DNA from: a virus
Taxonomy: Duplodnaviria; Heunggongvirae; Uroviricota; Caudoviricetes
IMG/VR virus record: IMGVR_UViG_2537562231_000019
Reading direction: 5' to 3' (one strand)
Length of the DNA: 5,384 nucleotides
Below, piece after piece: positions 2,604 through 2,969 of the stretch. The notes beneath the pieces were generated by a model. The model was not told where the DNA came from, ran no database searches, and saw nothing but the letters and a program-made list of their open reading frames with translations. The first letter of the stretch is position 1; every line of letters begins with the position of its first letter. The position numbers and the translations under genes are program-made.

Positions 2604-2936
2604 TCAGTGCGCAGAAGGACTAAAGATAAACGTTTTCTTCACGCCTTTACACGGCCTGTCCTTCTCAAATCGCCATTTTGCCATCGCCTTTACAACCTGC
2701 TCATCAAACAGATGGTGCGGCTCTGAACGAATAAACTCAATTCGGGTGACAGTACCATCAGCACCAATATCAAACCTCACATCAACCCGTCCCTTTATAT
2801 AATTTGCCGCTGCATAGGCCGGATATTGTGGTAATGCCTTAACCAACTGTCGGGGCATATCTGTTTTATGTTGCGTACAGCCCATAACCAGAGAAGACAA
2901 CAAAATAATTAACGGAAGATTTCTTTTCATTTTCAT
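2604..2936 (-). CDS. Exported lipoprotein with TonB C-terminal-like domain (moron candidate)
   Basis: 110 aa from ATG 2936 (SD GGGGA just upstream; track starts 9 nt earlier at a GTG). Signal peptide MKMKRNLPLIILLSSLVMGC with Cys at a lipobox-like position. The stretch LPQYPAYAAANYIKGRVDVRFDIGADGTVTRIEFIRSEPHHLFDEQVVKAMAKWRF matches the TonB_C pattern (YP..A..G.V.V.F.....G.V....V..S.....D.....A...W.F). Gene is visibly more AT-rich than flanking phage genes. Confidence 0.6.
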   Translation of the reverse strand: MKMKRNLPLIILLSSLVMGCTQHKTDMPRQLVKALPQYPAYAAANYIKGRVDVRFDIGADGTVTRIEFIRSEPHHLFDEQVVKAMAKWRFEKDRPCKGVKKTFIFSPSAH

Positions 2937-2948
2937 TCCCCGCACAGA

Positions 2949-2969
2949 TTAGAATAAGTCTTATTCTAA
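2949..2969. promoter_or_regulatory. Palindrome TTAGAATAAG-T-CTTATTCTAA overlapping a candidate -10 (TAGAAT, minus strand) upstream of the lipoprotein gene; candidate operator/promoter
   Basis: 10-bp inverted repeat with 1-nt spacer seen directly. Minus-strand TGTTAGAAT resembles an extended -10; TTGATG lies about 19 bp upstream as a weak -35. Confidence 0.35.

Follow-up and report, generated by a model that had tools for sequence, protein, structure and literature searches.

The DNA analysed here, a stretch of 5,384 nucleotides from virus record IMGVR_UViG_2537562231_000019 (the window), is the late region of a lambdoid Escherichia coli prophage, read on the minus strand. In minus-strand order, it encodes a SAR-type lysozyme (4379-4912), small membrane ORFs, Rz (PF03245) with an embedded Rz1 (PF06085, E=1.7e-21), and a lipoprotein with a TonB C-terminal domain (TonB_C). 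Beyond the TonB_C gene lie a YlcI/YnfO (DUF3950) gene on the plus strand and then genes for an HNH endonuclease, TerS, and TerL. Near-identical DNA occurs in E. coli chromosomes inside complete Stx-phage-like prophages. A preliminary description of this DNA gave the TonB_C gene the position that bor occupies in lambda, and its placement between Rz/Rz1 and the YlcI-like, HNH, TerS, and TerL genes agrees with this. The features of the locus are the following:

2476..3079, minus strand: moron cassette of 604 bp, comprising the gene, 149 bp upstream, and 128 bp downstream (absence from phage vB_EcoS-569R3; GC content)
2604..2930, minus strand: TonB_C lipoprotein CDS, 108 aa, stop codon at 2604-2606 (ORF call, Pfam, phmmer, RefSeq start)
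2619..2855, minus strand: TonB C-terminal domain, residues 26-104 (E. coli TonB 153-231), including the YP motif and edge strand beta3 (profiles, phmmer, AF2)
2877..2930, minus strand: predicted lipoprotein signal peptide, residues 1-17, plus Cys18 (codon 2877-2879), with Thr at +2 (PS51257 match)
2937..2941, minus strand: Shine-Dalgarno-like GGGGA, 6 nt ahead of the ATG (read from the sequence)
2949..2969, no strand: perfect 10-1-10 palindrome TTAGAATAAG-T-CTTATTCTAA (inverted-repeat search)
2963..2971, minus strand: candidate extended -10 TGTTAGAAT, with a candidate -35 ATGACC at 2985-2990 and a predicted transcription start near 2956 (consensus scan only)

The window contains several other elements. 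At ~5102-5384 is the left end of an IS1 element (InsA zinc-ribbon and HTH domains), inserted beside the lysozyme gene; the insertion cuts a small ORF on the plus strand, which in E. coli NCCP15648 is uninterrupted. There is no holin gene between the lysozyme gene and IS1, so this copy of the prophage may be defective. An AT-rich block (41-46% GC) at 3836-4301, between the lysozyme gene and Rz, is the second such block in the window and contains several small hydrophobic ORFs (phrog_4906 and phrog_6632, PHROGs without an assigned function). It may be another moron within the lysis cassette. Just past the lysozyme gene and ahead of this block, a hairpin at 4256-4288 has a GC stem followed by a T-run on the minus strand.

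The YlcI/YnfO gene (2272-2472) is transcribed against the late operon. Its product has a weak PHROG match to a HicB-like antitoxin family, and the N-terminus may be a ribbon-helix-helix DNA-binding motif, which it resembles by eye. The gene is found with or without the TonB_C cassette and is therefore not a dedicated regulator of it. The gap between the HNH and TerS genes (1645-1772) contains a cluster of palindromes centred on GTTAAC: GCAAATGTTAAC-N9-GTTAACATTTGC, a third copy GTTAACATTT, and CAGTTAACA/TGTTAACTG. These are candidate cos or terminase recognition sites. A scan of the window against Rfam gave no credible match.

A TonB C-terminal domain on a predicted lipid anchor

The reading frame of the TonB_C gene is open over 2604..2945 on the minus strand. 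The best start is the ATG at 2930, which follows the GGGGA and is also the RefSeq start in identical loci; an alternative ATG at 2936 would give 110 aa. The leader MKRNLPLIILLSSLVMG followed by C (lipobox LVMG/C) fits PROSITE pattern PS51257, with MKRNLPLIILLSSLVMGC as the matching segment. The exported lipoprotein of roughly 110 aa that had been proposed is thus a 108 aa protein with a PS51257 lipobox and Thr at +2. Across an alignment of 32 family members the lipobox Cys is invariant, and the +2 residue is Thr, Ser, Ala, or Val, never Asp. In E. coli, lipoproteins without Asp at +2 are sorted to the outer membrane, so we predict Lol export and outer-membrane sorting for this protein. The predicted lipid anchor and a complete TonB C-terminal domain (CTD) are linked by about 7 residues. 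An overlapping 78-aa ORF (2866-3102), annotated as hypothetical in phage JLK-2012, has no match to any family and is likely spurious.

The domain is recognised by Pfam PF03544 (TonB_C, E=9e-15, 55.3 bits against a cut-off of 24.6) and by TIGR01352 (55.2 bits against 27.1). Residues 24-104 align with E. coli TonB 151-231 without gaps at 36-41% identity, and phmmer matches to TonB chains in the PDB (E ~1e-15) are also gapless. The protein retains the YP motif, the beta3 edge strand, and the aromatic core (equivalents of F180, F202, W213, Y215, and F230). Q160 and R166 are residues with roles in TonB genetics and in the FhuA:TonB structure; their equivalents are not conserved in the lipoprotein, being L/Y and Y in the alignments.

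An AF2 model built from 32 homologous sequences has pLDDT >95 over the domain (residues 30-105) and shows the alpha-beta-beta-alpha-beta fold of solved TonB CTDs. It lies 1.0 Å from TonB in the BtuB:TonB complex (2gsk_B, TM 0.92), 1.1 Å from TonB in FhuA:TonB (2grx_C), and 1.2 Å from 1u07; overall, comparisons with these three structures give RMSD values of 1.0-1.3 Å and TM scores of 0.88-0.92. A first AF2 run with 6 sequences reached a pLDDT of 61, and a structural search with that model still returned only TonB CTDs. The preliminary description had proposed a TonB_C-like domain and had named structure prediction as a check; the Pfam match and a model 1.0 Å from TonB both bear the proposal out.

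The protein does not have the makeup of a TonB energy transducer, because it has a lipobox leader in place of the N-terminal inner-membrane anchor and lacks a proline-rich spacer. Against the NCBIfam TonB equivalogs (PRK10819) the best score is 73.7 bits, compared with a cut-off of 315, and the match is confined to profile positions ~152-240. Taken together, the profiles, alignments, and model identify the protein as a whole TonB CTD on a predicted lipid anchor, without the inner-membrane anchor or the proline-rich rod.

The moron cassette

Phage vB_EcoS-569R3 lacks exactly positions 2476-3079, a 604-bp indel, and is almost identical to the window on both flanks. The imperfect 7-bp repeats TTCGGTT and TCCTGTT flank the cassette. 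Its GC content is 42.7%, compared with 52-54% in the flanks and 51.8% in the whole window, and only 1.3% of 604-bp windows have GC this low. The gene had been described as lying in a region visibly more AT-rich than its neighbours and as a moron; it does lie in a cassette of deviant base composition that is cleanly present or absent. A scan for an intrinsic terminator of the cassette found none. The gene has the same direction as the late operon, and we would expect read-through from the late promoter as well.

Directly after Rz is a non-coding element of ~190 bp (3080-3262), 80-99% conserved in many Stx phages and other lambdoid phages. It is present whether or not the TonB_C cassette follows. 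Indels of 1 nt between copies argue against coding. We considered a structured RNA and rejected it, given a folding-energy z of -0.26 and no Rfam match.

Promoter region and palindrome

A promoter-like site upstream of the gene consists of ATGACC, a 16-nt spacer, and TAGAAT with a TG extension, the -10 hexamer being at 2968-2963. The scan that found it returned 2 promoter-like sites, compared with 1.8 in shuffled sequence. The -10-like hexamer aligns at the same place in the gene variants A, B, and B2. The palindrome covers ~-13 to +8 of the predicted promoter and so includes the -10 and the predicted transcription start; for inverted repeats of this kind (arms of 10 or more, spacer of 3 or less) the expectation is ~0.04 per window. 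The perfect 10-bp arms and the overlap with the -10 agree with the preliminary description, and the -10 is of the extended type with TG.

The same description took the palindrome to suggest repressor control, and this reading is weak. Of 84 related loci, 4 have the perfect 10+1+10 form, and the common allele pairs at 9 of 10 positions; the arm that bears the -10 is invariant, and the other arm has three polymorphisms. The dyad is absent from variant B and from phage 21. A 50-kb stretch of the carrier phage JLK-2012 has one copy only. We therefore reject a repeated phage repressor operator, since the palindrome is neither conserved among relatives nor repeated in this phage. Other matches to the palindrome core in viral contigs are mostly from one unrelated phage group that does not have the family gene; they are embedded in unrelated sequence, and no family gene adjoins them. 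Also rejected is an RNA hairpin or terminator, as the AU stem is weak (z=-1.7) and there is no U-tract.

In the most diverged A-like copy, the TG/-10/palindrome segment is identical at 22 of 23 positions, whereas the neighbouring spacer reaches 17 of 24 and the CDS 89%. This suggests constraint on the segment, although the numbers are small. A decamer that contains GATAAT, GTCGGATAAT (3017-3026), lies ~90 nt before the start codon and is aligned in loci L003 and L004. Variants A, B, and B2 share it almost unchanged within poorly conserved surroundings, and no matching -35 was seen. The decamer may act as a second promoter element or as half of a protein-binding site.

Distribution and selection

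Of 5426 complete E. coli genomes, 414 (~8%) have a complete copy of variant A, the type found in the window; phages JLK-2012 and Lys8385Vzw carry it too, as do some Stx1a phages. Variant B, whose protein is ~70% identical to that of variant A, occurs in 1221 of the 5426 genomes (~22%), so that the two together reach ~30%. Classical phage 21 carries variant B, annotated as "TonB C-terminal domain protein", just downstream of bor, from which a single small ORF separates it. The lipoprotein is under purifying selection: synonymous sites are saturated between variants A and B, and dN/dS is 0.10-0.15, with 0.12-0.15 for the CDS of the window against variant B. Many copies of variant B are frameshifted or truncated.

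Further relatives, gathered by an exhaustive profile-free search, are small proteins of 107-133 aa with 31-51% identity, nearly all with a lipobox. Phages or prophages of E. coli, Klebsiella, Rahnella, and Sodalis carry the gene in one and the same slot, behind the lysis genes and ahead of the packaging genes. In Salmonella, Pantoea, Erwinia, and others, the gene stands alone in the chromosome outside prophages. At the chromosomal locus L216 (2208-4739) the TonB_C lipoprotein gene is beside an integrase fragment and ~1.7 kb from a gene with a pore-forming colicin domain (PF01024); a second strain (locus L217) has different genes at this place.

We also scanned GTDB genomes with search patterns specific to the E. 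coli variants. The sole match was a 418-bp contig in a Modestobacter excelsi assembly (NZ_SJEX01000172.1) whose product is the variant-B protein of E. coli, 69% identical to the query; the contig is probably a contaminant.

Fur boxes in relatives

We scored Fur sites as matches out of 19 to the consensus GATAATGATAATCATTATC. The Sodalis prophage and locus L216 have sites with 17/19 matches, Erwinia and Pantoea 16/19, and locus L218 14/19; the chance of at least 16/19 in 220 nt is ~1e-4 per promoter. These boxes are at -30 to -37 from the start codon, positionally equivalent to the palindrome in the window. In several relatives the first hexamer of the Fur box doubles as the -10, as the first hexamer also does in the window. 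The coincidence in position speaks for a regulatory role of the palindrome, with Fur as the candidate regulator. From the strong boxes in relatives, the family looks ancestrally iron-regulated, a control that the E. coli prophage alleles may have kept, weakened, or replaced.

The E. coli prophage alleles do not have sites as strong as these. The palindrome in the window matches the Fur consensus at 11-12/19, and 31% of random 220-nt stretches reach 12, so it is not above background and we reject it as a canonical Fur box. The Klebsiella phage has 12/19, and variant B has no Fur-like site.

Possible functions of the lipoprotein

We propose, as the most plausible reading and at a little under an even chance, that the cassette is a lysogenic-conversion moron whose lipid-anchored TonB CTD competes for TonB boxes. 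The preliminary description had put forward such competition, with exclusion as its outcome, and all results here are compatible with it. The protein has no N-terminal membrane anchor or proline-rich rod and so cannot transmit ExbBD energy. It would be held at the periplasmic face of TonB-dependent transporters, where it would still present the beta3 edge strand and capture TonB boxes by beta-augmentation. Host TonB would then face a competitor for the TonB boxes present in receptors and in group B colicins. TonB-dependent steps would be damped, so that T1/phi80-type phages would be hindered in irreversible adsorption and colicins, microcins, and albomycin in import, and the cost would be reduced uptake of siderophores and B12. 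In a lysogen the gene may be transcribed from its own extended -10 promoter, and in lytic growth by late-operon read-through. The ancestral control of the family would be by Fur, in response to iron.

Several observations count in favour of such a decoy. The CTD is complete and without indels, and the model is 1.0-1.1 Å from TonB bound to BtuB or FhuA. The leader is that of a lipoprotein, not the TonB anchor, with an invariant lipobox Cys and no Asp at +2. The dN/dS value, the slot shared across genera, and the presence in ~30% of complete E. coli genomes also support the proposal, and with Fur boxes as in relatives, expression would coincide with the derepression of TonB-dependent receptors. 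There are precedents as well. Iron import that depends on TonB is reported to be inhibited when periplasmic TonB is overexpressed (Howard et al. 2001, cited in PMC9841981), and a passage in PMC9841981 states that a TonB-box pentapeptide makes both killing by colicins and infection by phi80 less effective. Phage T5 encodes a lipoprotein, Llp, whose site of action is the periplasmic face of FhuA; Llp cannot bind when TonB is bound there.

Other observations count against it. The host would also be starved of iron, most of all if the gene is induced by low iron. The equivalents of Q160 and R166 are changed, and many variant-B copies are frameshifted or truncated. The stand-alone chromosomal relatives would fit a housekeeping iron-related role equally well. 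PADLOC defence models gave no significant match to the protein, with one spurious match at E=0.039.

An iron-related role is the basis of an alternative that we consider unlikely, in which the protein is a Fur-regulated outer-membrane partner of the Ton system, an accessory or modulator of iron uptake and not a defence. It might, for example, keep TonB boxes in place or prime them, adjust signalling of the FecA type, or give TonB a docking site on the outer membrane, and prophages would carry the gene for fitness or virulence in iron-poor niches. The strong Fur boxes (16-17/19) of the Sodalis prophage and of the chromosomal copies in Erwinia, Pantoea, and locus L216 fit this role, as do the non-phage contexts in which chromosomal copies stand alone. 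A free TonB CTD uncoupled from ExbBD would be expected to compete rather than help, though, and the E. coli prophage alleles have no significant Fur box; in the account given by PMC9841981, artificial periplasmic TonB inhibits transport. It is improbable, in our view, that the anchored CTD instead sequesters TonB by pairing with the host TonB CTD through beta3-beta3 contacts, which would have the same outcome through another target. The fold and edge strand are the same as in TonB, and TonB CTD dimers (1ihr and 1u07) are among the structural matches, but CTD dimerisation of full-length TonB in vivo is debated, and all observations here would fit TonB-box binding equally well. We give little credence to an envelope role like that of Bor/Iss (serum resistance, adhesion, or peptidoglycan contact), with a stable small fold reused and TonB boxes not involved. 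Such a role would suit the genomic slot of bor, the lipoprotein nature, the AT-rich cassette, and the location close downstream of bor in phage 21. There is no similarity to Lambda_Bor, with Pfam giving only TonB_C and TonB_2, and the conserved TonB CTD core and beta3 strand argue for TonB-like binding.

The remaining two explanations concern lysis and decay. PHROGs v4 labels phrog_1267 as "Rz-like spanin", and the protein matches this family over its full length (E=6e-42); the gene also comes immediately behind the lysis genes and is oriented like the late operon. A role in lysis, as an accessory or spanin-like protein, is nevertheless hardly credible, because the window has a complete Rz with embedded Rz1 and the carrier prophages of Rahnella and Sodalis have separate o-spanins, and on these grounds we reject a spanin identity. 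The sequence also has no C-terminal membrane helix or hydrophobic segment as in a unimolecular spanin, and the cassette is dispensable in the near-identical phage vB_EcoS-569R3. Rz1 itself has a weak match to phrog_1267 (E=0.006) over the N-terminal part that includes the lipoprotein leader, and the label therefore looks like annotation transfer. It is almost certainly an artefact, seems to derive from the lipoprotein leaders that these proteins have in common, and would lead automatic annotation of phages astray. To a decaying passenger without current function we assign very little weight. Truncated or frameshifted variant-B copies are numerous, and an IS1 element lies beside the lysozyme gene in this prophage; on the other side, dN/dS is low between lineages with saturated synonymous sites, the lipobox is invariant, and the slot is conserved across four genera.

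A wider form of the decoy proposal, which we regard as doubtful, is that small outer-membrane-anchored TonB CTDs are unrecognised natural anti-TonB decoys of Enterobacterales. They would have been induced ancestrally through Fur by iron starvation and captured repeatedly by lambdoid prophages, among them classical phage 21 and the prophages of ~30% of complete E. coli genomes, in which they would shield lysogens from TonB-dependent phages, colicins, and microcins.

Relation to known systems and significance

The lipoprotein has the fold, YP motif, aromatic core, and beta3 strand in common with the TonB CTD (E. coli ~150-239; PDB 1U07, 2GSK, and 2GRX). TonB itself has an inner-membrane anchor and a proline-rich rod, whereas the lipoprotein is predicted to be in the other membrane and uncoupled from ExbBD. 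The artificial periplasmic TonB fragments (Howard et al. 2001), as described in PMC9841981, likewise consist of the C-terminal part of TonB without energy coupling. Those fragments are engineered, soluble, and overexpressed; the lipoprotein is natural, phage-borne, and predicted to be lipid-anchored.

Among phage proteins, the superinfection-exclusion factors Llp (T5) and Cor (phi80 and N15) are likewise small lipoproteins of the outer membrane and have a TonB-dependent receptor as their target, as the TonB_C lipoprotein would. Both are specific for FhuA and block adsorption allosterically, whereas a TonB mimic would act on TonB boxes generally and on energy-dependent steps. We found no homology to Cor, Llp, or Bor, and Llp and Cor are also unrelated to it in fold; Pfam matches are only to TonB_C and TonB_2, and PHROGs matches only to phrog_1267 and phrog_34172. 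Bor (lambda)/Iss is likewise a lipoprotein moron between Rz and the packaging genes. Its sequence is unrelated, and bor is transcribed against the late operon, whereas the TonB_C lipoprotein gene runs with it. The TonB_C lipoproteins of other Enterobacterales (Pantoea, Erwinia, Rahnella, Sodalis, and Salmonella) are annotated "TonB family protein" and have the same architecture and length, with 33-48% identity along the entire protein including the leader. Many of these are chromosomal with strong Fur boxes, whereas the E. coli alleles have the palindrome (variant A) or neither (variant B).

Public databases already annotate the ORF, with its TonB_C domain, as "TonB family protein" or "TonB C-terminal domain protein". 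Full-text literature searches found no functional study of the TonB_C lipoprotein, and a review of superinfection exclusion does not include it. The lipoprotein architecture, the exact cassette, the prophage slot conserved across genera, and the link to Fur boxes appear to be new.

If the decoy function is real, the gene joins the Bor/Cor/Llp kind of lipoprotein moron. TonB-dependent receptors are a main gateway for iron, B12, colicins, microcins, siderophore-antibiotic conjugates, and many phages. Competition for TonB boxes would then be a new mode of lysogenic conversion or superinfection exclusion, aimed at energy coupling and not at one receptor, and the protein would be a ready-made scaffold against TonB boxes. 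It could also explain differences among E. coli strains, including lysogens of Shiga-toxin phages, in sensitivity to colicins, phages, and "Trojan-horse" antibiotics.
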